Shown: positions 861 to 63,231 of the stretch, piece by piece
Layout: every line of letters starts with the position of its first letter
Position numbering within the stretch: the first letter of the stretch is position 1
Sequence record: OZ556245.1
Strand: one strand, 5' to 3'
Source of the DNA: a phage
Length of the DNA: 64,000 nt
Notes under the pieces: model-generated
Seen by the model: only the letters and a program-made list of their open reading frames with translations
Told to the model about the DNA's origin: nothing
The model's database searches: none
Program-made: the position numbers and the translations under genes

Positions 861-974
861 TCACATAAATCCAAAGTAAGCGTTTAATACATCAATCATT
901 AAAACGATTGGGAATATACTCAAAACTACTAGTATTATAACTACATTCCATATAGCTTTAACAATCTTTTTCAT
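861..974 (-). CDS. small membrane protein (37 aa) downstream of conserved promoter-leader cassette
   Basis: ORF track 861..1070 trimmed: N-terminal part is translation of promoter/leader; true ATG follows GGAGGAACAGAAA leader. Confidence 0.4.
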   Translation of the reverse strand: MKKIVKAIWNVVIILVVLSIFPIVLMIDVLNAYFGFM

Positions 975-1248
975 TTTCTGTTCCTCCGTAGTTGATAGTT
1001 GTATAGTACCACAAAGGAACAGTCTTGTAAACAACTTTTTAAAAATATTCGTAATAAATGTGAATACCAATCACCACTGCCGAAACTTGTGCAACCCACC
1101 ATGCACAAGCAATAAGTACAGAATTCAAAATTTTCATAATAACCTCATTACAAAAGTAAATGTTAAACAAATTAATGGAATACTAACTAACCAAACAAAA
1201 CACCACCACAATGAACTCATAGTTCAATCTCAACGATTTTCATTTTAC

Positions 1249-1455
1249 TCAATAATCCGCTAAAAGATCGACGATTGTATCACGAAGACATTTATTCGCG
1301 ATACGTTTAAGAGCAATTTCAGTTTCTGGAGCATTTTGAATAATCATTGAATTCAATTCAGCTTCAGCAAACTGAAGTTCTTTAACTAATTCAGCTTTAT
1401 ATTTTCCTTGCCCTTTCTTAGCTTTTGCTCGTTTTAATTCAGCTGTAGTAAACAT
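1249..1455 (-). CDS. hypothetical small protein (68 aa)
   Basis: ORF track trimmed from TTG to ATG immediately after conserved leader GGAGAATAAA. Confidence 0.5.
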   Translation of the reverse strand: MFTTAELKRAKAKKGQGKYKAELVKELQFAEAELNSMIIQNAPETEIALKRIANKCLRDTIVDLLADY

Positions 1456-1487
1456 TTTATTCTCCAAATCCGTATCAGTTGATAGTT

Positions 1488-1519
1488 GTATAATACCACA
1501 GTCCTTGTGGTATGTAAAC
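1488..1519 (-). promoter_or_regulatory. early promoter (GTTTAC -35, TGGTATTATAC -10) with conserved leader
   Basis: reverse complement reads GTTTAC-17 nt-TGGTATTAT; copy of repeated promoter-leader cassette. Confidence 0.55.
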
Positions 1520-1536
1520 CATTTTGTGAAAATTTT

Positions 1537-2094
1537 TTAAATGGAAAGATACCATCCGTTGTAGTTGCTTTTTCTTACAACCTTACGAAGGTCTTCTCTA
1601 TCACCGATGAACTTCGGAGTGTACTGGATGACACCTGGATGAATTTCTTTAGTGTTGAATATAATTATACAGTCAGCGACCTGATGATTCAGAATGGGCC
1701 CTAGATTTATTCCAGAACCGTATGGATACTCTCCGCTGCATCCTGTTGTTACAGAAATCCAACGCGAGTCAGTTTGATGTGTCTTAACTTCTACGCGAAG
1801 CCCGCAGTATCTTGGATGCGCCAATACATCCCATGCGTATGTATACGGGTCATTAACATCCTCTTGGCCTTTGTTAACATACCCGCTTAGCCAATCTGCT
1901 ACAAAAAACTCTGCGTACACCGCGATACGACATCTTTCAATAACTTCTGCTTTATCCTGGTTCGGGTTTTGTTTTAAAGAGTATCTTGCTGTATCAGCAA
2001 TTTTGACCTTCATTTCACTAGTCAAGTCACTGTTCGATAGGGTAAATGTCGGAATCTGAAATAGTCTCTGTAAACCCGGATTCGTTTTCTGCAT
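1537..2094 (-). CDS. denB: endonuclease IV-like protein (T4 DenB position and length, 185 aa)
   Basis: position two genes downstream of rIIB and exact T4 DenB length; no catalytic motif verified; 5' end overlaps upstream ORF by 68 nt so start may be an internal Met. Confidence 0.55.
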   Translation of the reverse strand: MQKTNPGLQRLFQIPTFTLSNSDLTSEMKVKIADTARYSLKQNPNQDKAEVIERCRIAVYAEFFVADWLSGYVNKGQEDVNDPYTYAWDVLAHPRYCGLRVEVKTHQTDSRWISVTTGCSGEYPYGSGINLGPILNHQVADCIIIFNTKEIHPGVIQYTPKFIGDREDLRKVVRKSNYNGWYLSI

Positions 2095-2620: not shown

Positions 2621-3556
2621 TTTAAATTGTTCAGTAACGTCTTCAACTACTTCGTATTGGCAGGTACGCATTTTAGCATCGTTGTAATCAATCGGAATTG
2701 ATACTACATCACGCGGATGCACTTTAACTTTTACAACTCGACTGGTTGAACTGCCAAAGTGACGAATATAAGATTTAGAACACACATGCAGACCACGAGA
2801 ACAAGTTTGTGTATCATCGTCATTCACACGAGTACGTGGCATTTTAACTACTTTACCAGGACTGTTATCAAAAGTATTTGAATGACAGTCAAAGTAATTG
2901 CTGCGAACTACTTTCCAAGCATAGAAGTAGCCATCTTCTGTAATTTCAATATCGTTTGCTACCAAGAAATCAAAGAGTCGAGATACCGCTTTTTGGCTTG
3001 GGTTTTCCAACAGATTTTCCAAGAACGGAAAATAAAATTCAAAGTTTTCGCCTTTTTCCATCGAATCGAGAATACGATCAACTAAACCAGACCGCAATTC
3101 AATATTTTGATAGAACAAGCTTCCACCTTCAATTCGAACATCACCGGAAATATATTTTTCAACGGCGCGACGAACATTAATTTTTTGTGCCGCTTCTTCC
3201 AATTTATCTGCAACAAGCAGATTAAGAATTTCCTGGAAGTTTGAATGAGTATTAGGAGTTGCGTTATAAGTTACACCATCAACAGTAATTGAAATGAATT
3301 TTTTAGATGCATTCCAAATAATGTCAGATTTAGCAACTGGAGCGATAGTTGTATCGCTATTAACTTTAACCGTAATGTCACCGCTAATGGTAACTTTGGA
3401 ACGCTCAGCTTCTTCAGCATTTTTCAAAACACGACGGATTGTGTCAACCGATACACCTTGCCAATCAGCCAATTCCTGTTGGGTGTAATTACCACTTGAA
3501 TACAGTTTGACAATTTCAGCTTGTTCGTTTTTGGTCAGGCATTTAATATTGTACAT
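2618..3556 (-). CDS. rIIB: rIIB protein (membrane-associated rapid-lysis / exclusion protein)
   Basis: 312 aa, same length as T4 rIIB, immediately downstream of rIIA. Confidence 0.85.
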   Translation of the reverse strand: MYNIKCLTKNEQAEIVKLYSSGNYTQQELADWQGVSVDTIRRVLKNAEEAERSKVTISGDITVKVNSDTTIAPVAKSDIIWNASKKFISITVDGVTYNATPNTHSNFQEILNLLVADKLEEAAQKINVRRAVEKYISGDVRIEGGSLFYQNIELRSGLVDRILDSMEKGENFEFYFPFLENLLENPSQKAVSRLFDFLVANDIEITEDGYFYAWKVVRSNYFDCHSNTFDNSPGKVVKMPRTRVNDDDTQTCSRGLHVCSKSYIRHFGSSTSRVVKVKVHPRDVVSIPIDYNDAKMRTCQYEVVEDVTEQFK

Positions 3557-3567
3557 AATTTTCCTTA

Positions 3568-5745
3568 TTAGGCCGCAAGGGCCTTCATAGTTTTAGCGAT
3601 TTGGGAAACTTCATCATCACTTAAAGAGTTGCGATAACCGATGAAGTCGGAAACAATACGGAATTTCTTGGTAAACTCAGCAACCATTTTATCACTGTTT
3701 TTTGAAGCATTATTTGATAATACATCAAAAAGATTAGTTACTGTCCAGATGTCATGACCGATGGTACCTTTTCCACCGTTGAAATATATACCCTGCAATG
3801 AACTAACCATATTACCAAGGCGAGTATATTCTTCAGAAACTTCATCTACACTGAAGTACTTCATCATAAAATCTAACTCAGGATACTTGATAATTTTATC
3901 AATATATCGTTTAGCTGAACTTGAATAACCTACATACTTATCATAATCTACAGCATCAAAAGCATCTACATATAAATCACGTAGAGTTTCAAAAATACAT
4001 TGGCACTGACCGAGTTCTTTTACCTTTTTCTGCAAAAGCGGACGAATAACATAAAATTCATTAATGCCAATAAGATTAGCCATACGAGTCAAAATACTCG
4101 TAGATGGATGACAAAGCGATGTAGTACCATCCATAGAGAAAATATCAGAACGATGCATGTATGCTACATAACCAGTAATTTCATCTGCTTCTGATGTGAG
4201 TGTAAACAGTTCCTCTTTTTCCCAGCGTCCGTCTTTAATTTCAAACTTAAATGCAGTAGCAGCTTTAGGACGAGGAGCTTTACTTTTAACTACCTTCGGA
4301 ATATAACTTTTAACTAAAGCTTCAATTTCTGACAAATAATGAATGTTAACTTCATCACTTTCAAACATCGCAATAATATCAGGAAGTAAATCAATCTGCG
4401 ATTCTACTTCCGGGTTAATAAACAGAAGACGCTCATTATGATGAATATTTAAAGTGTTATTAAATTCACTATCATCTAACGCATGTGCTAATCCACGGAC
4501 AATATTAACACGATTTTTAATATCATCAATAACGATATTAATTTTTGTTGTATTAATACCGAACAGACGATAGCTTGATGCAACGGCTGAAGTTTCATGG
4601 CTTTGCTTAATGCGTTTCAGTCGAGGGTCAAGATTTACTTCATACACAACCCCTGCATTACATAACTTACTATCAGGTTCAAACATGCTCTGCATCTTCT
4701 TATATGACAAATTTTTAGTCGTGAATTTGACTGAATTACTAATCATATAATCTCGAGCAGAATACCCCATCTTCATCAATTCGCGATATGTGTGACGAGG
4801 AGATGTAGATTCTTTAAATCGTTTTACATCTTCATTAAATGCTTGCTCACTAAGTTCTTTAACTCGTTCAATAATATTTTTACGAGTACGATCATCCAGT
4901 GAAAGAGCCTCGCGAGATGGAGCAATATCAAGTGAACCCATTGGAAACTTAATGTAATTCACTTCATTACGAATGCTTAGCCAGTTACGCTCTCTAATAA
5001 CACCATCAATAGGATAAACAATACCGCCATAGATGGCATACAATCCACCACGATCAGGCCAATATCTTTCTGGATTTACGCCATAGTAGTCATCAAAATC
5101 CGGAAAATAATCAATTTCACGGTCAAGACCATTGATGATAGCCAAATCTTTGAATGGCCGCATGATATAAGAAACTTCATAAGCAAAGTTTCTAAAGTCT
5201 TTTTCTTCAACTGGAACTACGATTTCAATACCAGTTTTATCATCTGGGCCCATTTCTTTTACAAATGTAGGTTTAATTTGTGGACCATCGCCATCCATAT
5301 AAGCTACATAACCACGAATTTCGCCTTTATGATACGAAGTAATACTAAACGTATCAGTATAACTAAATGGAGATTTAGAACCTAAACCAAATCCGCCAAT
5401 GAAATCGTTGGATTCGGCTTTAGATGAACTGAAGTATGAATTATACAGACCAGGAGAATTATCATCACCTTGAATATCAAAATCGCTCATACCCGGACCA
5501 AAATCTCGGCAAACAAATCGCGGATCTAATCGTCCTGGAACTTGAATGATAAATTTTTCATGATTTCCATTGAGAGCATGGGCGTCAATCATGTTGGTAA
5601 TCAATTCACGGACTACTGCGCGAATCTTGTTTGTATACAAATCAGATGACAGAATTTTAAATACTTTAGGAGATGCTGTGATGCTAAATGCTTTTGATTT
5701 AGAACCATTACCAAGAATTGTTTCTTTTTCAGTGGTGATAATCAT
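3568..5745 (-). CDS. rIIA: rIIA protein with N-terminal GHKL-type ATPase fold
   Basis: 725 aa as T4 rIIA; Bergerat N-box ELITNMIDA and DFGPGM G1 box near N-terminus. Confidence 0.9.
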
Positions 5746-5984: not shown

Positions 5985-6014
5985 ATTATACCACATCCTT
6001 GTGGTAAAGTAAAC
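5985..6014 (-). promoter_or_regulatory. early promoter between gene 39 and rIIA region
   Basis: GTTTAC - 17 nt - TGGTATAAT on transcribed strand. Confidence 0.6.
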
Positions 6015-7834
6015 TATTGGCTCATCCATTCTTTACGAAGGTCAGCATTATCTCCCATGAGCATTTCAAAAAGCTCTTTCCAGTTCTCAGGAAGTTTAAC
6101 AACATCATATACTGGGTTTTGAATCATCTCACGGTATTCAGATTTTTCCAAAGAGCCAAGTCCCTTAATATAACGGATGCTATGTTTAGGTAGAGCATCT
6201 TTGGCACTCTCATATTCAGCGACTGTATAAAACCATTCTTGTTTTTTACCGACCTGAGCGATGATTACAGGAGTTTTGACGAAGCGAATTCTTCCTTGTT
6301 CAAACAGTTCTGGCCAATTACTAAAAAATCCGAGCAGAGAAGGATAAATGCTTCCTAGACCATCATGGTCGGCATCGGTCATAATTGCAATATTATGATA
6401 ATTCAAGTTTTCAGCCTTTTCACCAAGAACTAATCCAGTGATTGCGCAAATATCAAACAGTTCTTTGTTTTTAAGCATATCAGCATATGACATACCCCAG
6501 CTGTTAAGAACTTTACCGCGTAATGGATAACCACCATGAAGTTCTTTATCACGAACATCAATAAGATATCCGATAGCCGAATCACCCTCAGTCAAGAAAA
6601 GAGTAGTGTCAGCATCTTTACCACAAAGATTCGCTTTAATATGTTTATGAACCTTAGCTTTAGAAGCCTTTTTAGCTGCTTTAGTTTCTGCTGCCTTTTC
6701 TGCAGCCAATTTACGAGCCAAAGCAGCTTCAATAATTGGCATTAAAATTGCTTCATTGTTTAAAATAGCGCGTGAAATCTTTTTAGCATCAAGCTGAATA
6801 TGACTACGAATTTCACCAAATGGAGAAGTCAAACGCTCTTTAGTTTGAGAATCAAATCGCATGTTTTTCATATCACGAACAAACATGACGATAGTCAAAC
6901 ATTCTTTAACACGTGCTTTAGTTACATCAATTTTGAACTTGCGTTTGATTTGTGGAATAAGGTCTTCACAAATATCATCCATAACACAGTCAATGTGATG
7001 ACCACCATTCTTAGTATGAATGTTATTAACGTATGTTAATTGACGAAAACCATCCGGTGAACGACCAACCGCAATAGAACAATTTTCTTGTTCTTGAACA
7101 ATAGCATGCTCATCATATTGGCGTGCGTATTTCTTAAAATTACCCTGAACCTTTTTACCATTAAAGGTAAATTGAATATCAGGATAAACTACTGCAAGTG
7201 TCTGGAGACGATCTAGTGTAATGTCAAGATAAACTTGAGATAGCTCATTAGTTTCAAATGACATAAAATCAGGAATGAAAGTAACACGTGTTCCTTTCCA
7301 TTTTCCAGGAATATCTTCCCATGATTTATTTTCCATGCCATTTGAACAACGAACTACAATATTATTTTGACCGTCGCCAGTTTCACCGATAAACATCACA
7401 GAAAAAATGTTAGTTAAACTAGAACCAACACCGTTCATACCGCCAGTGACGCGTTCTTTGTCATCACCAAAGTTACCACCTGCTTTTGGAATAGTCCAGG
7501 CAGCAACAGGACCAGGAATTTCTTCACCAGTAGGTGTTTTAACCATCGCTTGTGGAATACCACGACCGTTATCTTCAACTGTTACTTGATTGTTTTTGAT
7601 AGTAACATTAATTTTATTCGCGAATTTAAACTTAGTACGAATACCTTCATCTACCGAGTTATCGATAATTTCATCAATAAGCTTAACAAGACCAGGTACA
7701 TACTGAACACTTTCCCATTTACCAAACAGAAAGCGCTCATGCATTTCATTAGCGGAAGAGCCAATGTACATGCCGCTACGCTTTTTGATATGTTCAATAT
7801 CGCTCAGAATTTTAATTTCATTCTTAATCATCAC
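6014..7834 (-). CDS. 39: DNA topoisomerase II ATPase/TOPRIM subunit, single uninterrupted ORF equivalent to T4 gp39 plus gp60
   Basis: 606 aa; GHKL N-box LIDEIIDNSVDEG, G1 box EDNGRGIP, TOPRIM motifs LTEGDSA and MTDADHDG. Confidence 0.9.
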   Translation of the reverse strand: MMIKNEIKILSDIEHIKKRSGMYIGSSANEMHERFLFGKWESVQYVPGLVKLIDEIIDNSVDEGIRTKFKFANKINVTIKNNQVTVEDNGRGIPQAMVKTPTGEEIPGPVAAWTIPKAGGNFGDDKERVTGGMNGVGSSLTNIFSVMFIGETGDGQNNIVVRCSNGMENKSWEDIPGKWKGTRVTFIPDFMSFETNELSQVYLDITLDRLQTLAVVYPDIQFTFNGKKVQGNFKKYARQYDEHAIVQEQENCSIAVGRSPDGFRQLTYVNNIHTKNGGHHIDCVMDDICEDLIPQIKRKFKIDVTKARVKECLTIVMFVRDMKNMRFDSQTKERLTSPFGEIRSHIQLDAKKISRAILNNEAILMPIIEAALARKLAAEKAAETKAAKKASKAKVHKHIKANLCGKDADTTLFLTEGDSAIGYLIDVRDKELHGGYPLRGKVLNSWGMSYADMLKNKELFDICAITGLVLGEKAENLNYHNIAIMTDADHDGLGSIYPSLLGFFSNWPELFEQGRIRFVKTPVIIAQVGKKQEWFYTVAEYESAKDALPKHSIRYIKGLGSLEKSEYREMIQNPVYDVVKLPENWKELFEMLMGDNADLRKEWMSQ

Positions 7835-7883: not shown

Positions 7884-7902
7884 AAAGGCCCGAAGGCCTT
7901 TT
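7884..7902 (-). terminator. UUCG-tetraloop hairpin
   Basis: AAAGGCCUUCGGGCCUUU. Confidence 0.5.
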
Positions 7903-9354: not shown

Positions 9355-9525
9355 TACAATTTCCTCATTAATTGAACATTGGAGCGATGCGTTTCAGAAG
9401 AGTAGCAGCACCTTTGGCAAATTTTCCATTTTATTCTCCAAGTTATTTTCTGTATCAGTAGTTGATATTGATATAGTACCATAATCAACTACTGATGTAT
9501 ATAGTTTTATGAAAAATTTTAAACT

Positions 9526-10017
9526 TTATGCATAGCGAGCTTTGCTATAGTGTTTAATCCAACTTTCAGGAATGACTTTGTATGTTCCTAAAAATACCAC
9601 ATTGTACAACTTAACGCCATCTTCTACCCATTGATCTGTAATGTATGCACACATAGCGCGAGTACGATGAGGAAGTGGTTGTCCACCTTCAGTAAATTCA
9701 AACTCATAAGGAGCAACGAACTTAATAGCTTGACCGAGTTTCCACTTAAAGTCTACACCTACATGCGAAGTATCAATCGTTTCAATTCCTTTAGCAGGAA
9801 CAGCTTTCAAAAACGCAGATTCAAGAAATTTCGCGCGAACATAACCAAACTGAGGTTTAGACTTTCCATCTTTAGGAATGATACGAACTTTTACTTCAGA
9901 ATCTTCATCTTTAACACCATGCTTAAGCTGAATGCTTACAATTTCGACCAATTTTCCTGCTGCTTTAGAACGGGATTTATCAGATACACGAGCTAATTCA
10001 CCAATATTAATAATCAT
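9526..10017 (-). CDS. hypothetical protein (163 aa), MotB position; paralog of next gene
   Basis: C-terminal motif ITDQWVEDGVKLYNVV shared with 10094..10633. Confidence 0.55.
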   Translation of the reverse strand: MIINIGELARVSDKSRSKAAGKLVEIVSIQLKHGVKDEDSEVKVRIIPKDGKSKPQFGYVRAKFLESAFLKAVPAKGIETIDTSHVGVDFKWKLGQAIKFVAPYEFEFTEGGQPLPHRTRAMCAYITDQWVEDGVKLYNVVFLGTYKVIPESWIKHYSKARYA

Positions 10018-27835: not shown

Positions 27836-28093
27836 TCAAATACAAGTAGTAATTACTCCAGTAGTGCTTACACAGGTATTACCTAATTGAACACCAAGCG
27901 TTCCATTAGTATTCATATGAAGATTATCATCAATTTTTGTTGATACTTTACCATTCATGTGAATAACAGTATTAGATTCAATCACATTCTGAGTGTCATT
28001 TTCAATATCAATAAATGGAACAGCTGCTAATGCAACTAGAACAACTGCTAATGCAACTAAACACGCTGCTAAACAACCATAAACAATTTTCAT
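27836..28093 (-). CDS. small secreted/membrane-anchored protein (85 aa)
   Basis: ORF track 27836..28282 trimmed to ATG after conserved leader; N-terminal hydrophobic segment. Confidence 0.5.
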   Translation of the reverse strand: MKIVYGCLAACLVALAVVLVALAAVPFIDIENDTQNVIESNTVIHMNGKVSTKIDDNLHMNTNGTLGVQLGNTCVSTTGVITTCI

Positions 28094-28123
28094 TTTATTC
28101 TCCAAATCCGTATCAGTTGATAG

Positions 28124-28157
28124 TTGTATAGTACCACGGAAGAACAGGGATGTAAAT
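28124..28157 (-). promoter_or_regulatory. early promoter with conserved leader (cassette copy)
   Basis: ATTTAC ... GGTACTATAC followed by leader ACAACTATCAACTGATACGGATTTGGAGAAT. Confidence 0.5.
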
Positions 28158-28243
28158 AGTTTTGTGAAAAAATTTTTAATGAATTTACAGGACCTAGAAT
28201 CATCTATTTTTATTAAGTATAGATTTATATTACTTGTATGAAA

Positions 28244-28262
28244 AAGGGACCCGGAGGTCCCT
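28244..28262 (-). terminator. intrinsic terminator after gene 43
   Basis: AGGGACCUCCGGGUCCCU hairpin followed by UUUUUCAU. Confidence 0.6.
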
Positions 28263-31028: not shown

Positions 31029-31046
31029 TAAGGGGCCGAAGCCCCT
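31029..31046 (-). terminator. UUCG-tetraloop hairpin after regA
   Basis: AAGGGGCUUCGGCCCCUU. Confidence 0.55.
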
Positions 31047-32974: not shown

Positions 32975-32992
32975 TAAGGGCCGAAGCCCTTT
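32975..32992 (-). terminator. UUCG-tetraloop hairpin between genes 45 and 44
   Basis: AAGGGCUUCGGCCCUU. Confidence 0.5.
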
Positions 32993-37684: not shown

Positions 37685-37702
37685 AAAGGGCCGAAGCCCT
37701 TT
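37685..37702 (-). terminator. UUCG-tetraloop hairpin after alpha-gt
   Basis: AAAGGGCUUCGGCCCUUU. Confidence 0.55.
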
Positions 37703-41323: not shown

Positions 41324-41341
41324 AAAGGGCCGAAGCCCTTA
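41324..41341 (-). terminator. UUCG-tetraloop hairpin
   Basis: AAGGGCUUCGGCCCUU. Confidence 0.5.
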
Positions 41342-49856: not shown

Positions 49857-49885
49857 ATTAATCTCCTCAGTAGAAAGTAAGAACA

Positions 49886-49914
49886 TTATACCACATCCTT
49901 GTGGCAAAGTAAAC
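49886..49914 (-). promoter_or_regulatory. early promoter
   Basis: GTTTAC - 17 nt - TGGTATAAT. Confidence 0.55.
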
Positions 49915-50936
49915 TAGTTTAGTGCATTTAGTGCATTGTTCAGTTTAGAACGTTGCTTCGTAAGATTTTTGACTTTTTCTTGAGCTTTTTCTAGCATCTT
50001 TTCAGCTTCTAACACTTCATTAGTTGCTTTAACGAGTTCATCATCTACTGCCTTGATAGACTTCTCAATCGCATCCGCATGCCATTTTTCAACAGGTTTA
50101 AGACTCGGATTTTCAACAGGAAGAAAATTCACTTTATTGAATTTCCATGCATCTTTATTACTTGAACTATACATCCAAAATTTAGGATCGTTTGATGAGT
50201 AATTGGATAAATTTAAGTTATCTTGCACTTCCTGCTTTTTCTCTTGTGGGACTTCGTCCTTTCTCAAAAAATCGTATTTAAATGAAACGATCATATCAAG
50301 TTCATACGTTGTTGTATGTTCCCAATTTCGCTCAAAATGAGGTAAAATCTTAGACTGAACAGCGGCAACAACATCCATATACTTAAATGCTTCTGTCAAC
50401 TGTGATTTAAGGCATTCGCAAATTGAAAGAGAATTTTTTGTATTAGGTTTAAAGCTAATTCGCGCAGTTCTGTTATTTTCTTTTAATGGTCTTACTTCCA
50501 TCTGAAGAGTATAATCATCAAATTTCAGATTCTTTAAGTTAATATCAGAACCTTTTAATCGACTCGCAATTGATAAAATTTGTTTTAATTGTTTACGGAA
50601 TAGAGCAATAAATCTCCATTCAATACGATAATGATTTGGATTGAAAAATCCAGATGATAAATCGACCTTACTTTGACCAACGCCTTGAACAAATAGAGGA
50701 TTTTTATAATCAATAGTTTTACAGAAATCGGTGAGCTGCTCACGAGCAGTCATTTGTGTAATATATCCTGCTTGGTTAAAATTGCGCACCCATTCACTGC
50801 TGTTCAGATGTTTAAAGGCATGAATGGAACAATTAACTTTACCAAGGTCTAAATTATTTTCACACAAAAACGTCATAGCATCACGAGTATAGCTGGCATT
50901 ACGAACCATATCTTCAATTTGAGAACGAGTTTTCAT
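49914..50936 (-). CDS. hypothetical protein with C-terminal coiled coil (340 aa)
   Basis: ORF track. Confidence 0.55.
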   Translation of the reverse strand: MKTRSQIEDMVRNASYTRDAMTFLCENNLDLGKVNCSIHAFKHLNSSEWVRNFNQAGYITQMTAREQLTDFCKTIDYKNPLFVQGVGQSKVDLSSGFFNPNHYRIEWRFIALFRKQLKQILSIASRLKGSDINLKNLKFDDYTLQMEVRPLKENNRTARISFKPNTKNSLSICECLKSQLTEAFKYMDVVAAVQSKILPHFERNWEHTTTYELDMIVSFKYDFLRKDEVPQEKKQEVQDNLNLSNYSSNDPKFWMYSSSNKDAWKFNKVNFLPVENPSLKPVEKWHADAIEKSIKAVDDELVKATNEVLEAEKMLEKAQEKVKNLTKQRSKLNNALNALN

Positions 50937-52305: not shown

Positions 52306-52833
52306 TTATGCGAGTACCGTCTTTAACCGTTCTTCAAACTTCCGAAGAGTATTTTGGCGTTCAGCTCTTTGCTTTTTGTAAGTTTCAATACGCTCTGAAA
52401 TGAGAGAGTATCGTTCATTTACTGATTCTTTCATAAAATCAGGAATTTCACGAGAAGCTTTAATCTCGTCAAATTTATCAATAACAGCCTGCTCTTCAGC
52501 AATTAAGTTATCATACATTAAAATATCTTTCTTGATGAACTCAATATCTTCTTGAGTTACACGAGATAATTTAGATGCTTTATCCTTTTTGTACTGTTCG
52601 TTAGTATCACGAGACCAGTGTAATGTACGATTTTTATTCGTATTTTTGTAAATTTCTACAATACCGATCTCATCGATAATAACGATCCAATTCCAACGGG
52701 ATTTGTAAATTTGTCCTCCATCAACAGTGATTTCACCTCCAATTGAGATGTCATTAAAGAACTTGCTTTGCGCTTCAGATTTAAATTTACCATCGTTGTA
52801 ATTTACCAAGTTGAAAATATCTTTAGCGTTCAT
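52306..52833 (-). CDS. hypothetical protein with C-terminal coiled coil (175 aa)
   Basis: ORF track; directly follows conserved promoter-leader cassette. Confidence 0.55.
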   Translation of the reverse strand: MNAKDIFNLVNYNDGKFKSEAQSKFFNDISIGGEITVDGGQIYKSRWNWIVIIDEIGIVEIYKNTNKNRTLHWSRDTNEQYKKDKASKLSRVTQEDIEFIKKDILMYDNLIAEEQAVIDKFDEIKASREIPDFMKESVNERYSLISERIETYKKQRAERQNTLRKFEERLKTVLA

Positions 52834-52859
52834 TTTGTGTTCCTCCGTAGTTGATAGTT

Positions 52860-52891
52860 GTATAGTACCACAGAGGAACAGTCTTGTAAAC
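52860..52891 (-). promoter_or_regulatory. early promoter with conserved leader (cassette copy)
   Basis: near-identical to cassette at 1000..1032. Confidence 0.5.
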
Positions 52892-52893
52892 CA

Positions 52894-53208
52894 CTAAAAG
52901 AAACTTCTTTCACATTTTTTTCCACTGAACCATGCACTTACCGCTTTCTTGGTCTCAGGAGCAGTGTTATCCATAAACCATTCAAAGGCAGCCTTTTTAT
53001 GATTCTGGAGGGCTTCTCGGGCTTTAATCTGCTCACGGTCTATTAACACTAACATATGAGCCTTTCTTGTCACCATGGGCTTCTTATGATTTTTTGAATA
53101 CTCCCAGTCATTTGTCCATCGCATTGTCGTTGCGAACTGAAATACTGCTTCTTTAATTTTAGTTTCGTAAATTTCACGAGCCTTTGAGTATAACATCACT
53201 ACCTCCAT
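52894..53208 (-). CDS. hypothetical protein (104 aa)
   Basis: ORF track. Confidence 0.45.
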   Translation of the reverse strand: MEVVMLYSKAREIYETKIKEAVFQFATTMRWTNDWEYSKNHKKPMVTRKAHMLVLIDREQIKAREALQNHKKAAFEWFMDNTAPETKKAVSAWFSGKKCERSFF

Positions 53209-53297: not shown

Positions 53298-54284
53298 TTA
53301 TTTCAGAAGAGTAACCTCAGCAATTTCTTCCCAACCGTTTTTGTCGGTCATAATAAAGTCAGCAAGATAAAGAGCAGTACGCAGTGAAACATTGCGTAAA
53401 CGATTAACATTAACTTTCATCCATGATAATGCTTTATAAGTTTCTTCATCAGAAAGACCGCGCTTTTGCATCATGTCAGTTGAAAGAATAACATCTTCAA
53501 CCCTGACCATAATTTCTTCATTAGTGTGAACACCCAAATCTAAATAAACCGAGCGGGACACTAATGCTTGTAAATGTGGAGCAAGTTTAGTACCACGGTC
53601 TAATTCGCGGTCAATGTCAACGTTTGTGATAAAAACAATCGTTCCTTTAAATTCAAACTCACGCTCAATGCCTTTTTCTTCTAAGTAAGAAGACGCAGTG
53701 CTCCAGCAGACTTTACGGGTCTCTCCAGTGTCCAGAGCGGCTTTTAGAAGATTAAGAATATCCATATCAGAGAAAACATCCACATCATCAATCAAAAGGA
53801 CAGAATTCTCTTCACGATTATTCCAAAGCTGCTCATAAAGACCAATACCAGAGATTTTACCATTAATGCTTTTATATTCAATGTATCCAATATCATTTGC
53901 TTTATTCAAAGCTTTATCTAAAGAATACGTTTTACCAATACCTGCTGCGCCAGAGATAATTAATGAACGAATATTTCCATTAATAATACCATTCGTCATC
54001 ATTCCCATAACATTAAATCTTTTATTAATGCGGGTTTTCATATCTTCATATGATTCTTTAACTTCTTCAACTTTTACACCATCATATGAAATATCTGATT
54101 TGTAAACCCAAACACCGCGACGCTTACCGTCAATTTCAACAAAAACTTTACCATCTCCTTGTGCATCTACCGGAGCATTATCTGGGAACCATTCGCCTAA
54201 GAGCTCAAAAGTTCCAGAGATTTCTTTACCGAAGTAGATACCCTTATTGATAGTTACAGTTTTCATTTTATTCTCCAATTTCAC
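53298..54284 (-). CDS. AAA+ family ATPase (328 aa)
   Basis: Walker A GAAGIGKT, Walker B VLLIDDVD, sensor-1-like FITN. Confidence 0.65.
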   Translation of the reverse strand: MKLENKMKTVTINKGIYFGKEISGTFELLGEWFPDNAPVDAQGDGKVFVEIDGKRRGVWVYKSDISYDGVKVEEVKESYEDMKTRINKRFNVMGMMTNGIINGNIRSLIISGAAGIGKTYSLDKALNKANDIGYIEYKSINGKISGIGLYEQLWNNREENSVLLIDDVDVFSDMDILNLLKAALDTGETRKVCWSTASSYLEEKGIEREFEFKGTIVFITNVDIDRELDRGTKLAPHLQALVSRSVYLDLGVHTNEEIMVRVEDVILSTDMMQKRGLSDEETYKALSWMKVNVNRLRNVSLRTALYLADFIMTDKNGWEEIAEVTLLK

Positions 54285-54335
54285 ATTTGTTTTGATAGGG
54301 TAATAGTATCACACTACTACCCTACTGTAAACAAT

Positions 54336-54599
54336 TTATTTTAATGTTTGCCAAATTTTTACTGCTTCGCGACGAGATACTTCTACAGCTCCAAGTTCTA
54401 CGGCTTTTTGGCGTCGGCGAGCATGTAAGTCATAATGTTTAATGCGTTTATCTTGAAACCAAGAACGTTTCATTCCTATTGCTTCTGCCATTTTATGAAG
54501 CTCTTCAATATCTCCATCAGTGAACATATGACAATTTTTAGTTGGATGACCGCGAAGTTTCCATCCATGATTCATTAAAACATCTACGTAAACTGTCAT
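54336..54599 (-). CDS. DUF4031-like small protein (87 aa)
   Basis: MTVYVD...CHMFTDGDIEELHKMAEAIGMKRSWFQ...HYDL pattern; translationally coupled to upstream 49-aa ORF. Confidence 0.5.
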   Translation of the reverse strand: MTVYVDVLMNHGWKLRGHPTKNCHMFTDGDIEELHKMAEAIGMKRSWFQDKRIKHYDLHARRRQKAVELGAVEVSRREAVKIWQTLK

Positions 54600-54745
54600 T
54601 GATTCTGCTCCAAATATGTTTCTATAATTTTCTGAGCGAGATAAACTGCGTTATCTTCAGTTGCATCTTCTAAGAAATTTTCAAAATAAACTGAAATTTC
54701 TTCTGTGTCAATCAACTTTTTTACTTCAATTAACGTAGTTTTCAT
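54596..54745 (-). CDS. small acidic protein (49 aa)
   Basis: hand-translated MKTTLIEVKKLIDTEEISVYFENFLEDATEDNAVYLAQKIIETYLEQNQ; ATG directly after conserved leader GGGGAATAAA; stop overlaps next ATG. Confidence 0.4.
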   Translation of the reverse strand: MKTTLIEVKKLIDTEEISVYFENFLEDATEDNAVYLAQKIIETYLEQNQ

Positions 54746-54777
54746 TTTATTCCCCAAATCCGTATCAGTTGATAGTT

Positions 54778-54809
54778 GTATAGTACCATAAAGCTTTATG
54801 CTTGTAAAC
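54778..54809 (-). promoter_or_regulatory. early promoter with conserved leader (cassette copy)
   Basis: GTTTAC ... GGTACTATAC plus leader ending GGGGAATAAA. Confidence 0.5.
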
Positions 54810-54839
54810 CGTTTTGTGAAAAAATTTTGAAATAAAAAA

Positions 54840-54860
54840 GGGAGCCCGAAGGCTCCCTAT
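54840..54860 (-). terminator. UUCG-tetraloop hairpin after nucleotidyltransferase gene
   Basis: AGGGAGCCUUCGGGCUCCCUUUUUU. Confidence 0.6.
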
Positions 54861-57877: not shown

Positions 57878-58006
57878 TACATACTCCTTTGAATAATATC
57901 AATAATGTTATTCACCAAATTATACGTAAACATTGGGTAATTATATTGAATCATCACATACACAACAAACAAAACTTTCATTCTCTTCTCCTTGGCAGTT
58001 GACAAG

Positions 58007-58039
58007 ATTACTATACCATAACCTTGCCAACTTGTAAAC
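58007..58039 (-). promoter_or_regulatory. early promoter
   Basis: GTTTAC ... TGGTATAGT. Confidence 0.5.
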
Positions 58040-58041
58040 CA

Positions 58042-58215
58042 TTAAATGACGTTTTCAATAAAATTCTGAAGCTTTGTGTGAGCATCAACCATGATTTTCA
58101 TTTCTTCCTTTGCGAAAGCTGTACCTCTTTCCCGAGCAGAATACTCATAGTCAGAAACTGCATTAGCATATTCTTCAATTAGCTTCATTAAAAACATCTG
58201 CTTTTCAGTTTTCAT
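58042..58215 (-). CDS. small helical protein, S/T-x-EQ-like family (57 aa)
   Basis: hand-translated MKTEKQMFLMKLIEEYANAV...; not in track. Confidence 0.35.
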   Translation of the reverse strand: MKTEKQMFLMKLIEEYANAVSDYEYSARERGTAFAKEEMKIMVDAHTKLQNFIENVI

Positions 58216-58605: not shown

Positions 58606-58838
58606 TATTCCACCACATATGAAAGAGAGAATATTGCACACGCCATATGAGTTGCAGCTTCATCACACATATCATAACGTTTCTTAAGAAGTTCTACAAG
58701 TTCTTCACTAGTAACTTCATCCATGTCGACGAAAAAATCACCATTAATGATGACGTAGATATTTCCTTCTTGATTGAGTGCTTCAATTTTCATGATGTTC
58801 TCCTCTTTATCCGATGGTTGTATAGTATCACGGCTCAA
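58605..58838 (-). CDS. hypothetical small protein (77 aa)
   Basis: ORF track; early promoter upstream. Confidence 0.45.
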
Positions 58839-58866
58839 ATTGAAAGTAAACTGGTAAAATGAAAAA

Positions 58867-58884
58867 AGTCTCCCGAAGGAGACT
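58867..58884 (-). terminator. UUCG-tetraloop hairpin
   Basis: AGUCUCCUUCGGGAGACUUUUUUC. Confidence 0.6.
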
Positions 58885-62711: not shown

Positions 62712-63173
62712 TCATTGAGTTTTAATTACTGCTTTAGAAGCCTTTCCTGGTAAACGACGACTGTTAATAATTGCCATCCTGCATTGAAGCGACGGGTCTT
62801 TGAACTTCGCATTAGGTTTACAAACTGTAAATCCAAGCCAAAGATTTCCATCTGTAATTTCTAAACGTCCAGGACGGTATTCAACCCCATCAATAAAATC
62901 CTCATCAATGTCAGGACGCGGAGGCATACTCAGGAATTCATTAACTTCTAAAACATGGTCTTTTATTTTGTGGAATAATTCAAAAACATATGTCTCATCA
63001 ATCTCCCGTTGAATTGCACGATCAAGAAGATGCTGAGAATATTTTAGATGAAACGATGAGACCCCTGCTGCTTTTGATGCCTCACGAATCTCATTGTTAA
63101 TTTGACGAAACTCCGACTCAAAGTGACGACGAAGCTTATTTCGACGGATAAAAACTTCTGTGTTGATAGTCAT
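62712..63173 (-). CDS. regB: RegB endoribonuclease
   Basis: 153 aa as T4 RegB; own early promoter immediately upstream. Confidence 0.75.
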   Translation of the reverse strand: MTINTEVFIRRNKLRRHFESEFRQINNEIREASKAAGVSSFHLKYSQHLLDRAIQREIDETYVFELFHKIKDHVLEVNEFLSMPPRPDIDEDFIDGVEYRPGRLEITDGNLWLGFTVCKPNAKFKDPSLQCRMAIINSRRLPGKASKAVIKTQ

Positions 63174-63201: not shown

Positions 63202-63231
63202 TTATACCACAGTCAAGAGGAAAAGTAAACA
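63202..63231 (-). promoter_or_regulatory. early promoter upstream of regB
   Basis: GTTTAC - 17 nt - TGGTATAAT. Confidence 0.55.

Follow-up and report, generated by a model that had tools for sequence, protein, structure and literature searches.

In this work, we analysed a 64,000-nt stretch of phage DNA (record OZ556245.1; hereafter, the window) and found five repeated promoter-plus-leader blocks, which we take, with a probability of about 85%, to be copies of the T-even "plug-and-play" early expression cassette, the T4-type PeSL. The window belongs to a Tequatrovirus, a T4-like phage about 97% identical to known phages, with the early genes on the minus strand; some 690 Tequatrovirus genomes match this region.

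Repeated Blocks and Their Common Plan

A sequence-only reading of this DNA had listed five blocks (approximately 981-1040, 1463-1540, 28088-28180, 52838-52900 and 54745-54830). All of them are present at these sites, each as a promoter followed by a leader on the minus strand, and comparison of the window with itself clustered them into families of 67-97 nt. The five sites follow a common plan: an A/T-rich UP region, GTTTAC-N18-(TG)TAYTAT, the block ACAACTATCAACT, and then one of two endings, ACGGAGGAACAnAAAATG in c1 and c4 (type A) or GATACGGATTTGGRGAATAAAATG in c2, c3 and c5 (type B). Where the leader variant of the earlier reading has GGAG, c5 has GGGG. The cassettes are as follows.

972..1057, minus strand: cassette c1, type A, 5' of ndd.4 (37 aa, 861-974); UP 1033-1057, -35 1027-1032, spacer 1009-1026, -10 1003-1008, leader with GGAGGAACAG 975-1002, ATG 972-974.
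1453..1544, minus strand: cassette c2, type B, 5' of a 68-aa ORF absent from T4; -35 1514-1519, -10 TATTAT 1490-1495, RegB-consensus GGAGAATAAAA 1455-1465, ATG 1453-1455.
28091..28182, minus strand: cassette c3, type B, 5' of an 85-aa ORF absent from T4; -35 ATTTAC 28152-28157, -10 28128-28133, GGAGAATAAAA 28093-28103, ATG 28091-28093.
52831..52916, minus strand: cassette c4, type A, 5' of the nrdC.8 homologue (175 aa, 52306-52833); -35 52886-52891, -10 52862-52867, GGAGGAACAC, ATG 52831-52833.
54743..54834, minus strand: cassette c5, type B, 5' of a 49-aa ORF and a DUF4031 ORF, neither of them in T4; -35 54804-54809, -10 54780-54785, SD mutated to GGGGAATAAAA, ATG 54743-54745.

The denB stop codon falls within the UP region of c2, and the UP region of c4 overlaps the 3' end of the upstream ORF (stop at 52894).

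The copies had been called near-identical, which holds within each subfamily: the -10-to-ATG segment is 97% identical in c1 and c4 and 95-98% identical among c2, c3 and c5. It does not hold between the types (77-79% over the same segment), nor for the 18-nt spacers of the type-B copies, which have only 7-9 of the 18 positions in common. As had been proposed, conservation runs from the promoter through the leader to the start codon, and within the types the similarity is not limited to the -35 and -10 hexamers. The 21-nt core GTTGATAGTTGTATARTACCA occurs exactly five times (at 991, 1478, 28116, 52850 and 54768; 0 expected) with a 3-mismatch copy at 9461, and no match to it was found in 100 dinucleotide-preserving shuffles. 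About 15 further early-promoter-like sites in the window have leaders unrelated to the cassette leaders, and four diverged relatives of the cassettes were recognized.

9427..9527, minus strand: diverged family member 5' of motB; ATATAC-N18-TACTAT, leader ..ATCAACTACTGATACAGAAAATAACTTGGAGAATAAAATG, with an exact RegB optimum.
54264..54357, minus strand: diverged cassette before nrdC.10; GTTTAC-N18-TACTAT, leader TACCCTATCAAAAC..TTGGAGAATAAAATGAAAACT.
57979..58064, minus strand: more distant relative; GTTTAC-N18-TATAGT, leader AATCTTGTCAACTGCCAAGGAG.
58791..58876, minus strand: more distant relative, TACTAT-ACAACCATCGG.., 5' of the mobD.5 homologue; a terminator-like hairpin lies ahead of it.

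The cassettes have orthologues in T4 at ndd.4, ndd.6, imm.1, nrdC.8 and nrdC.10, and T4 bears cassettes 5' of motA and e.8 as well. The exact core TACTATACAACTATCAACT is found in T4 5' of ndd.6, motA, e.8, nrdC.10, nrdC.8 and imm.1, and diverged copies at ndd.4, frd.3, trna.4, denV, mobD.5, sp and motB. Both c1 and c4 sit in blocks collinear with T4. Three IMG/VR matches to the core (L007, L020 and L027) were left out because no GTTTAC -35 hexamer lies upstream of them.

Repeats of this kind could be leftovers of gene duplication, i.e., the upstream regions of paralogous genes, and several of the downstream products are indeed small and start with MK(I/T/K).. However, the similarity ends 0-4 codons past the ATG, and the products of ndd.4, the 68-aa ORF, the 85-aa ORF, nrdC.8 and the 49-aa and DUF4031 ORFs are unlike in both sequence and length, so that the chance of such an origin appears negligible.

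Predicted Early Promoter

The elements of the early promoter proposed for the blocks are present in every copy: an A/T-rich UP region, GTTTAC (ATTTAC in c3), an 18-nt gap, TG and TAYTAT. By sequence, this matches the T4 Pe architecture (UP, -35, TGn and -10 for unmodified host sigma-70 RNA polymerase), which has been described for T4 early promoters as an "uber-promoter" (P8.1, motA early promoter; Hinton 2010, PMC2988021). The cassettes also resemble the T4 Pe in their minus-strand orientation in the early region and in their location at orthologous T4 positions, and the T4 motA cassette has the identical core. In contrast to the Pe as a class, most of which have unrelated leaders, the cassette family is a subset (about 6-13 of roughly 35-40 Pe sites) where the leader is common too.

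The conserved leader had been taken as a post-transcriptional signal. This stands for its GGAG end; the ACAACTATCAAC region is more likely a promoter signal, since it matches the general T4 early-promoter start-site consensus. A weak consensus is also seen in the T4 early promoters outside the family, where A..C.TATCAA.TA follows the -10 and GGAG..A-rich precedes the ATG; no start-site motif is given in the DksA/T4 paper. An untranscribed discriminator probably makes up the first ~6 nt of the "leader". Each copy would act in the window phage as a very strong sigma-70 early promoter combining the UP element, GTTTAC, TGn, TAYTAT and the start-site consensus, and the 5' UTR would be very short, about 22-28 nt if +1 is assumed ~7 nt after the -10.

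Putative RegB Site in the Leader

In all five copies, the SD (GGAGG, GGAG or GGGG) lies 8-9 nt before the ATG, within the conserved block. The regB product is an endoribonuclease cutting GG^AG sites, and the window has its gene.

62712..63173, minus strand: regB (Pfam REGB_T4, PF10715, E=1.4e-68); start region GGAGAATAACATG.

In T4, RegB/S1 sites follow the 11-nt consensus GGAGRAYARAA and overlap the SD in early mRNAs (Durand et al. 2006, PMC1702504; Uzan & Miller 2010, PMC3014915); the optimum, GGAGAAUAAAA, has been defined experimentally, and the target must be single-stranded, bases 5' of GGAG not being required (PMC1702504). The earlier suggestion of a GGAG endoribonuclease signal proved correct for the type-B ending, which is this very optimum, a 13-mer also found in motB, the model RegB substrate that is cut well (PMC1702504). 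It failed for c5, where GGGG replaces the GGAG (GGGGAATAAAA) and the consensus is lost; since it carries GGGG, c5 should escape cleavage. The type-A copies c1 and c4 have a GGAGG variant (GGAGGAACAGA/GGAGGAACACA) with three mismatches in the tail to the A-rich RegB consensus, and the T4 orthologue of c4, nrdC.8, is "moderately cleaved" by RegB (PMC1702504). The motA mRNA of T4 is cleaved within its SD (PMC2988021). Throughout the 64-kb window, the consensus has only four exact matches, all of them GGAGAATAAAATG and directly behind family cassettes; exact GGAGAATAAAA is found in c2, c3 and the motB and nrdC.10 cassettes.

The SD, the predicted RegB/S1 site (type B, GG^AGAAUAAAA; type A, GG^AGGAAC) and the AUG come together where the leader ends. 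Since these sequences have been studied experimentally in T4, one would expect the gene behind the cassette to undergo a burst of transcription and translation right after infection and to be functionally switched off when the RegB encoded in the window cuts inside the SD.

The conserved block is much longer than the RegB site. Long exact conservation in a 5' UTR often marks a structured cis-regulatory RNA; the leader (AUCAACUGAUACGGAUUU) might be a riboswitch, an operator for a protein or the target of an sRNA within a regulon, all the more as RegB/S1 recognition is itself an RNA-protein signal. Folding argues against this: taken from the predicted +1, the leaders should lack structure (MFE 0 to -1.3 kcal/mol), with a fold as good or better in 177-200 of 200 shuffles. 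Besides, RegB needs nothing 5' of GGAG. We dropped a structured leader because the leaders of the cassettes' own transcripts are unstructured, and consider such an element very unlikely. An Rfam search of the whole window gave no family at the gathering threshold, which excludes a known structured leader RNA.

Comparison with the T4-Type PeSL

The PeSL (promoter-early stem-loop) has been defined as an AT-rich region, a TTTACW-N17-TAYWAT promoter, an SD and a start codon, situated at indels (Arbiol et al. 2010, PMC2839356; Comeau, Arbiol & Krisch 2014, PMC4122927). The window cassettes resemble it in that the same elements form one conserved unit: the promoter pattern is present in 5/5 copies as TTTACA-17-TAYTAT with TG and an A/T-rich region upstream, and the unit closes with the SD and start codon. 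Like the published PeSLs, the cassettes recur in hyperplastic regions and lie next to indels that distinguish close relatives, which is the position of c2, c3 and c5. The worked example of a PeSL, the ndd.4/.5 exchange between T4 and PST (PMC4122927), concerns the locus where c1 and c2 lie, and the crossovers of the RB49 mini-circles, mapped between the -10 and the SD/ATG (PMC2839356), match the junctions of the inserts in the window. The RegB site is not discussed in either PeSL paper (RegB has 0 mentions in PMC2839356). The difference concerns the stem-loop, as an upstream terminator was seen only at c5 and, ~60 nt away, at c3.

54839..54858, minus strand: intrinsic-terminator-like stem-loop AGGGAGCC-TTCG-GGCTCCCT followed by TTTTTT, immediately upstream of c5.
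28245..28262, minus strand: terminator-like stem-loop (7 bp and a T-run), ~60 nt upstream of the c3 UP region.

By sequence, c5 with its stem-loop would be a complete PeSL, and the hairpin at 28245..28262 would be the stem-loop part of another. No upstream stem-loop was found at c1, c2 and c4, where upstream coding sequence adjoins, with ORFs ending inside the UP region; these three would count as "half" PeSLs. Among T4 early promoters, only 6/34 have a stem-loop within 80 nt. A further difference is that mini-circles have been demonstrated in RB49/phi1 only.

Insertions and Probable Conversion at the Cassettes

The repeats had also been proposed as substrates for recombination shuffling the downstream small genes. 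In line with this, comparison with T4 places an indel right at the ATG of three of the five cassettes: insertions of ~200, 260 and 460 bp begin at the ATG of c2, c3 and c5, and their boundaries carry repeats of the SD-ATG segment, namely GAG(A)ATAAAATG (c2), ATGAAAATTG (c3) and TTGGRGAATAAAATGAAAACT (c5).

1249..1455, minus strand: insertion relative to T4 immediately after c2, a 68-aa ORF; next to it comes another SD-ATG in degenerate form (GAGTAAAATG).
1217-1243, minus strand: mini-ORF of 8 codons after this SD-ATG, overlapping the ndd.6 start.
27836..28093, minus strand: insertion relative to T4 separating c3 from imm.1, an 85-aa ORF whose N-terminal stretch is hydrophobic; direct repeat ATGAAAATTG at the edges.
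54336..54745, minus strand: insertion relative to T4 separating c5 from the nrdC.10 cassette, a module of two ORFs (49 aa, and 87 aa with DUF4031); the 21-nt repeat TTGGRGAATAAAATGAAAACT at both ends.

The two-ORF module is bracketed by c5 and the cassette at 54264-54357, 477 bp apart; c1 and c2 are spaced by 487 bp. Neighbouring copies thus have the layout that mini-circle formation would need. Since all type-B inserts start at the ATG and are edged by SD-ATG repeats, the data support gene shuffling at the cassettes. Related phages agree with this: in other T4-like contigs the same leader is joined to at least nine different ORF starts, and across hundreds of T-even genomes the inserted ORFs are present in some and absent from others. 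A relocation of these ORFs to other loci found no support, as in the phage collection each was found at one place per genome and only gain and loss at a locus are seen.

Among the synteny breakpoints between the window and T4, 4/36 are no more than 12 nt from a cassette ATG, where 0.8% would be expected (p = 2e-4 in a post hoc test). For breakpoints anywhere inside the cassette interval, in a scan that missed c3 with its ATTTAC, the excess was not significant (3/36 vs. 3.8% expected, p = 0.16). Most window/T4 indels lie away from the cassettes, and several coincide with T4 homing-endonuclease genes (mobA region, segF, segA and mobD).

The copies also appear to convert one another. Compared with its T4 orthologue, the ndd.4 cassette has a cluster of 8 changes which make it identical to the nrdC.8 cassette, while its flanks are nearly identical to T4; this looks like patch gene conversion. 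The T4 recombination system acts on short homologies. A 30-90-bp block present at many loci would offer sites for both crossover and gene conversion, and small accessory ORFs could be inserted, deleted or replaced directly behind the cassette, gaining ready-made expression signals. Cassette-mediated shuffling has been published for T4-type phages, the ndd locus included (PMC4122927; PMC2839356).

Another explanation would be convergence, each gene having independently reached an optimal early promoter, start site and RegB/SD site. The weak consensus of the non-family T4 early promoters does indicate that the similarity is partly functional, and the type-B spacers, with 7-9/18 matches, differ strongly. 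Yet the linker TGATACGGATTT, which is in no known consensus, is identical in c2, c3 and c5, and the first 2-4 codons still share the identity (e.g., ATGAAAAT and ATGAAAACT). Moreover, the 8 clustered ndd.4 differences switch en bloc to the sequence of another cassette, and the insert junctions fall exactly within the shared segment. We thus consider convergence unlikely, and the mobile cassette remains our preferred reading.

Complementarity of the Promoter Spacer to the Leader

The 18-nt spacer between the -35 and -10 is usually held to be sequence-neutral. About 40% of T4 early promoters, among them c1 and c4, have a spacer complementary to their own leader or SD. The helices predicted for c1 and c4 have the following 5' arms.

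1008..1022, minus strand: hairpin 5' arm in c1 read-through RNA, from the promoter spacer; pairs with 978-992 (ACUACGGAGGAACAG = SD), 15 bp, z -3.2.
52867..52880, minus strand: hairpin 5' arm in c4 read-through RNA; pairs with 52838-52851, covering the SD, 14 bp, z -5.0, 0/200 shuffles.

Both helices cover GGAGGAACAG in the read-through RNA and are absent from the transcript starting at +1, so that the RegB site of c1 and c4 is predicted to be paired in the former and unpaired in the latter. It is conceivable, albeit doubtful, that the main selected feature of c1 and c4 is a translational insulator in which the spacer pairs with the SD in read-through RNA, the cassette similarity being secondary; the c1 and c4 genes would then be translated only from their own early-promoter transcript.

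Several observations are consistent with spacer-leader pairing of this kind. Against spacer shuffles, 16/38 T4 early promoters have z < -2, and 13 are matched by 0/300 shuffles; the same pattern is found in RB69, including a perfect 13-bp spacer-SD helix. Cognate spacer/leader pairs exceed non-cognate pairs in T4 early promoters (p = 0.001), and in the window relative at 57979..58064 the spacer is complementary to its own leader. Read from the sequences, the spacer-leader helices of the window and T4 show G-U-preserving and compensatory differences, and in the ndd.4 helices all four differences retain pairing. The merely moderate RegB cleavage of nrdC.8 would also agree with an insulator, as structure protects against RegB. 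Among the T4 promoters with stable duplexes, the sense RNA is more stable than the antisense in 17/21 and less stable in 3 (p = 7e-4), an asymmetry that could partly stem from the G/T-rich composition of the spacers.

On the other side, SD pairing is not significant at c2, c3 and c5 (z -1.1, -0.35 and 0.0, respectively), so that an insulator leaves the family as a whole unexplained, and the helix needs several G-U pairs. Covariation was not found for the type-A helix in the IMG/VR copies, where the core helix is invariant and the variable flanks do not covary, making this comparison uninformative. The idea that terminators and spacer-leader hairpins are mutually exclusive insulators was rejected (T4 2x2 = 2/4/14/14, Fisher p = 0.66).

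Extended to T-even early promoters in general, the tentative proposal is that their spacers may have been selected to pair, in read-through RNA, with their own initial transcribed region or SD. The -10 would then lie in the hairpin loop, and in promoter-proximal genes such as ndd.4, nrdC.8, regB and motB.2 both translation and RegB cleavage would be confined to the gene's own immediate-early transcript. A precedent is given by T4 e, soc, 49 and I-TevI, with SD-sequestering hairpins, a nested late promoter and a "late only" logic (Uzan & Miller 2010, PMC3014915). As in that class, the 5' arm at c1 and c4 lies upstream of the proximal promoter start and the 3' arm over the SD, and only the proximal-promoter transcripts are predicted to be translatable. 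The c1/c4 hairpins are, however, at most analogous to this class and not members of it, because the proximal promoter is early, not late; the logic would be "immediate-early only".

Implications

The biology of the cassette is already known: PeSL-type mobile cassettes and RegB-cleavable SD sites are textbook-level T4 features, so that this part of our finding has confirmatory value. What the window genome adds is a nucleotide-resolution view, in which accessory ORFs are spliced exactly at the SD-ATG of a shared leader and cassette copies appear to convert one another. The spacer-leader complementarity may be a new observation: it was not found in the T4 reviews consulted (the older work of Liebig & Rüger 1989, Wilkens & Rüger 1994 and Miller et al. 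2003 lay outside the search), and no relevant paper on hairpins or dyad symmetry at the early promoters of T4 came up in a literature search. If true, spacer-leader pairing would mean that T-even early promoters double as RNA switches limiting translation to the immediate-early transcript, an early-promoter counterpart of the late-promoter switch of e, soc, 49 and I-TevI. It would then bear on the shut-off of T4 early expression, which is still incompletely explained.

Repeated early cassettes in the window

All five early promoter–leader–ATG cassettes (c1–c5) claimed by the sequence-only reading were found on the minus strand with a promoter plus leader layout, and the repeated-cassette observation is confirmed. 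Their positions (+ strand numbering, as for all minus-strand features) and T4 orthologues are as follows:

972-1057, minus: c1, type A, ndd.4
1453-1544, minus: c2, type B, ndd.6
28091-28182, minus: c3, type B, imm.1
52831-52916, minus: c4, type A, nrdC.8
54743-54834, minus: c5, type B, nrdC.10
~9427-9527, 54264-54357, 57979-58064 and 58791-58876: diverged relatives

Each cassette begins with an A/T-rich stretch and GTTTAC (ATTTAC in c3), followed after 18 nt by a TG-preceded TACTAT or TATTAT, the common block ACAACTATCAACT, and one of two endings, ACGGAGGAACA(G/C)AAAATG in type A or GATACGGATTTGG(A/G)GAATAAAATG in type B. The 21-nt core occurs in the window in five exact copies and one copy with 3 mismatches, and gave no matches in 100 dinucleotide-preserving shuffles. 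The likeness clearly reaches past the -35/-10 hexamers, since the identity from the -10 to the ATG is 97% within type A and 95-98% within type B. The description "near-identical" is valid within each type but not across types (77-79%), nor for the 18-nt spacers of c2, c3 and c5, which have just 7-9 of 18 positions in common. About 15 further early-promoter-like sites in the window carry unrelated leaders.

Over its first 8 kb, the window is 95-97% identical to several hundred T-even phage genomes; in the annotation of a close relative, this part holds the minus-strand genes ndd, ndd.1-ndd.5, denB, rIIB, rIIA and gene 39. The window and T4 are collinear, from T4 ~165.8 kb through the rIIB/rIIA origin to ~63.5 kb. 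T4 carries the exact core TACTATACAACTATCAACT ahead of ndd.6, motA, e.8, nrdC.10, nrdC.8 and imm.1, and diverged cassettes precede ndd.4, frd.3, trna.4, denV, mobD.5, sp and motB. The T4 gene 60/60.1/mobA segment is absent from the window (window 6349-6414 vs. T4 2793-3911), T4 2794-3910 having no counterpart; the annotation of a close relative (LR746311) shows gene 39 as a single uninterrupted gene of 1818 nt.

Promoter and leader

All five cassettes score as TTTACA-17-TAYTAT with TG, and fit the UP/-35/TGn/-10 layout reported for early promoters of T4 (PMC2988021). A weak consensus, A..C.TATCAA.TA, follows the -10 at 28 T4 early-promoter-like sites outside the cassette family, so that ACAACTATCAAC, the beginning of the "leader", is the best version of a general start-site consensus. 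If transcription starts ~7 nt past the -10, the first six "leader" bases would be an untranscribed discriminator, and the true 5′UTR would comprise just ~22-28 nt.

Two other early promoters (5985-6016 and 49885-49916) have unlike leaders and a near-identical spacer and -10, which on the + strand read ATTATACCACATCCTTGTGG.AAAGTAAAC (97% identity in 32 nt) and include the palindrome CCACA...TGTGG, also present in c2. These promoters therefore look mosaic, with spacer and leader types assorting independently.

Probable RegB recognition of the leaders

From the predicted +1, the five leaders are essentially unstructured (MFE 0 to -1.3 kcal/mol), 177-200 of 200 shuffles folding as well or better, and no Rfam family matched anywhere in the window. 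The consensus for the phage endoribonuclease RegB with S1, GGAGRAYARAA, is single-stranded and needs nothing 5′ of GGAG (PMC1702504). At its 3′ end, the type-B leader reads GGAGAAUAAAA, identical to the optimal T4 RegB/S1 site derived by Durand et al. (PMC1702504). This consensus has four exact matches in the 64 kb, all GGAGAATAAAATG and directly behind family cassettes. The relevant features are:

c2, c3, motB and nrdC.10: exact RegB-consensus sites
11134: GGAU site of motB.2
62712-63173: regB (Pfam REGB_T4, E=1.4e-68)

In T4, motB, which carries the same 13-mer as the type-B leader, was the model RegB substrate of Durand et al., motB.2 has one of two GGAU sites that are cut, and nrdC.8, the orthologue of c4, is "moderately cleaved" (PMC1702504); the motA mRNA, with the same cassette core as the window copies, is cut within its SD (PMC2988021). 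By analogy with these T4 messages, and with regB present in the window, the GGAG endoribonuclease signal suggested earlier is probably genuine. It does not extend to every leader variant: the c5 SD (54746-54756) reads GGGGAATAAAA in place of GGAGAATAAAA, that is, GGGG instead of the GGAG of T4 nrdC.10. Since c5 lacks GGAG and sites of the GGAA type are cleaved very poorly (PMC1702504), c5 should escape cleavage; this single change is predicted to abolish RegB cutting of the mRNA of the 49-aa/DUF4031 module while keeping a purine-rich SD.

Complementarity between spacer and SD

The promoter spacers of c1 and c4 (CUGUUCCUYUGUGG) can base-pair with their SD region (CUACGGAGGAACAG): a helix of 14-15 bp whose loop holds the -10 is predicted for read-through RNA (z for helix stability vs. 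shuffles, -3.2 and -5.0), unlike the transcript from +1, which is predicted to be open. The arms are:

1008-1022/978-992: c1
52867-52880/52838-52851: c4

In T4, the spacers of 16 of 38 GTTTAC-N18-TAnnnT sites are complementary to their own leader/initial transcribed region or SD (z < -2), 13 of them being matched by none of 300 shuffles, and cognate pairs exceed non-cognate ones (p = 0.001). The T4 examples (NC_000866, -35 positions) are 65799 and 57990 (12-13 bp), 20612, 62797 (regB, 11 bp over AAGAGGAG), 8218 (motB.2), 166807 (ndd.4) and 53943 (nrdC.8); further window examples lie at 63230, 58039, 22420, 11193 and 10091. RB69, from a different genus, shows the same complementarity (7429, 19006, 43931, 20957), including a perfect 13-bp spacer-SD helix. 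As judged from the sequences, differences between the window and T4 preserve pairing via G-U or compensatory changes. Among 21 T4 promoters with stable duplexes, the sense RNA formed the stabler one in 17, and the antisense RNA did so in 3 (p = 7e-4), an asymmetry to which G/T-rich spacers may contribute.

SD sequestration with a nested promoter is known in T4 for e, soc, 49 and I-TevI, all with late promoters (PMC3014915), whereas c1 and c4 have early ones; no description of an early version was found in the T4 reviews consulted. Spacer complementarity showed no association with upstream terminators. The predicted folds of c2, c3 and c5 revealed no spacer-SD effect, and thus it cannot explain the whole family.

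Cassettes as probable recombination sites

The promoter-early stem-loops (PeSLs) were defined in RB49/phi1 (PMC2839356) and extended to T4/PST (PMC4122927). They comprise an AT-rich region, the promoter TTTACW-N17-TAYWAT, an SD and a start codon, and are concentrated in hyperplastic regions beside indels (PMC2839356, PMC4122927); ndd.4/ndd.5 exchange is a worked example (PMC4122927), and RB49 mini-circle crossovers were placed between the -10 and the SD/ATG (PMC2839356). The window shows this pattern down to the base. Compared with T4, insertions of ~200, 260 and 460 bp start at the ATG of c2, c3 and c5, respectively, each flanked by a repeat of the cassette 3′ end:

c2: GAGAATAAAATG ... GAGTAAAATG
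c3: ATGAAAATTG ... ATGAAAATTG
c5: TTGGGGAATAAAATGAAAACT ... TTGGAGAATAAAATGAAAACT

At c5, the diverged second cassette (54264-54357) would restore nrdC.10 expression, and crossing over between these cassettes would recreate the T4 layout. The inserted ORFs occur in 118-319 T-even records, vs. 689 for the window's first 8 kb, and among a small set of other T4-like contigs the same leader precedes nine or more distinct ORF starts. Of 36 synteny breakpoints, 4 fell no more than 12 nt from the ATG of a cassette vs. 0.8% expected (p = 2e-4, by a post hoc definition; p = 0.16 under a broad one). Most indels that separate the window from T4 are not near a cassette, and several map to homing-endonuclease genes of T4. 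The upstream terminator stem-loop of PeSLs is found in the window only at c5 and, ~60 nt off, at c3.

The ndd.4 cassette (window 975-1026 vs. T4 166755-166807) has eight clustered changes between nearly identical flanks. With them, the window copy matches the nrdC.8 cassette exactly, and the T4 copy resembles a trna.4-type cassette (TACCCTATCAAC); the pattern looks like patchwise ectopic gene conversion. Together with the insert junctions and the published PeSLs, this supports the proposed role as a recombination substrate. An 8-codon mini-ORF, whose stop overlaps the ndd.6 start (ATGA), encodes MKIVEIEL in the window (1217-1243, minus), behind the inserted 68-aa ORF, and MKIAEIEL in T4 (166993-167019), behind the cassette; the first four T4 codons are those of imm.1. 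From its sequence, it looks like a scar of cassette exchange.

The ORF inserted behind c5 (54336-54599) codes for a protein of the DUF4031 family (Pfam E=1.6e-21). Its module recurs in an Enterobacter phage record (~90% identity), and phage records from Proteus and Aeromonas, one each, are among its matches. The terminator-like hairpin AAGGGCCGAAGCCCTT (GGGC...GCCC) forms a second repeat family, with copies at 2375-2390, 2604-2619, 7887-7900, 31030-31045, 32976-32991, 37686-37701 and 41325-41340. Arbiol et al. (PMC2839356) credit Mosig et al. with finding the GGGC/GCCC motif at the endpoints of T4 deletions.

Probable portable expression units

The T4 recombination system works on short homologies. 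Each cassette is probably a portable early expression unit, in which a very strong promoter for the host polymerase would yield a short open leader with efficient ribosome loading, and the SD and RegB/S1 target, being the same 11 nt, would allow a burst of expression followed by shut-off. The repetition of the unit would let T4 recombination insert, delete, replace or convert the downstream gene. The sequence facts and comparative junctions are observed directly; for promoter activity, start site, cleavage and recombination pathway, we infer from T4/RB49 experiments on the same or equivalent sequences. Taken together, the data support the earlier interpretation and allow us to conclude that the cassettes are T4-type PeSLs with RegB-cleavable SDs, which are already known; there would be a modest upside if the spacer-leader complementarity proves real and undescribed.
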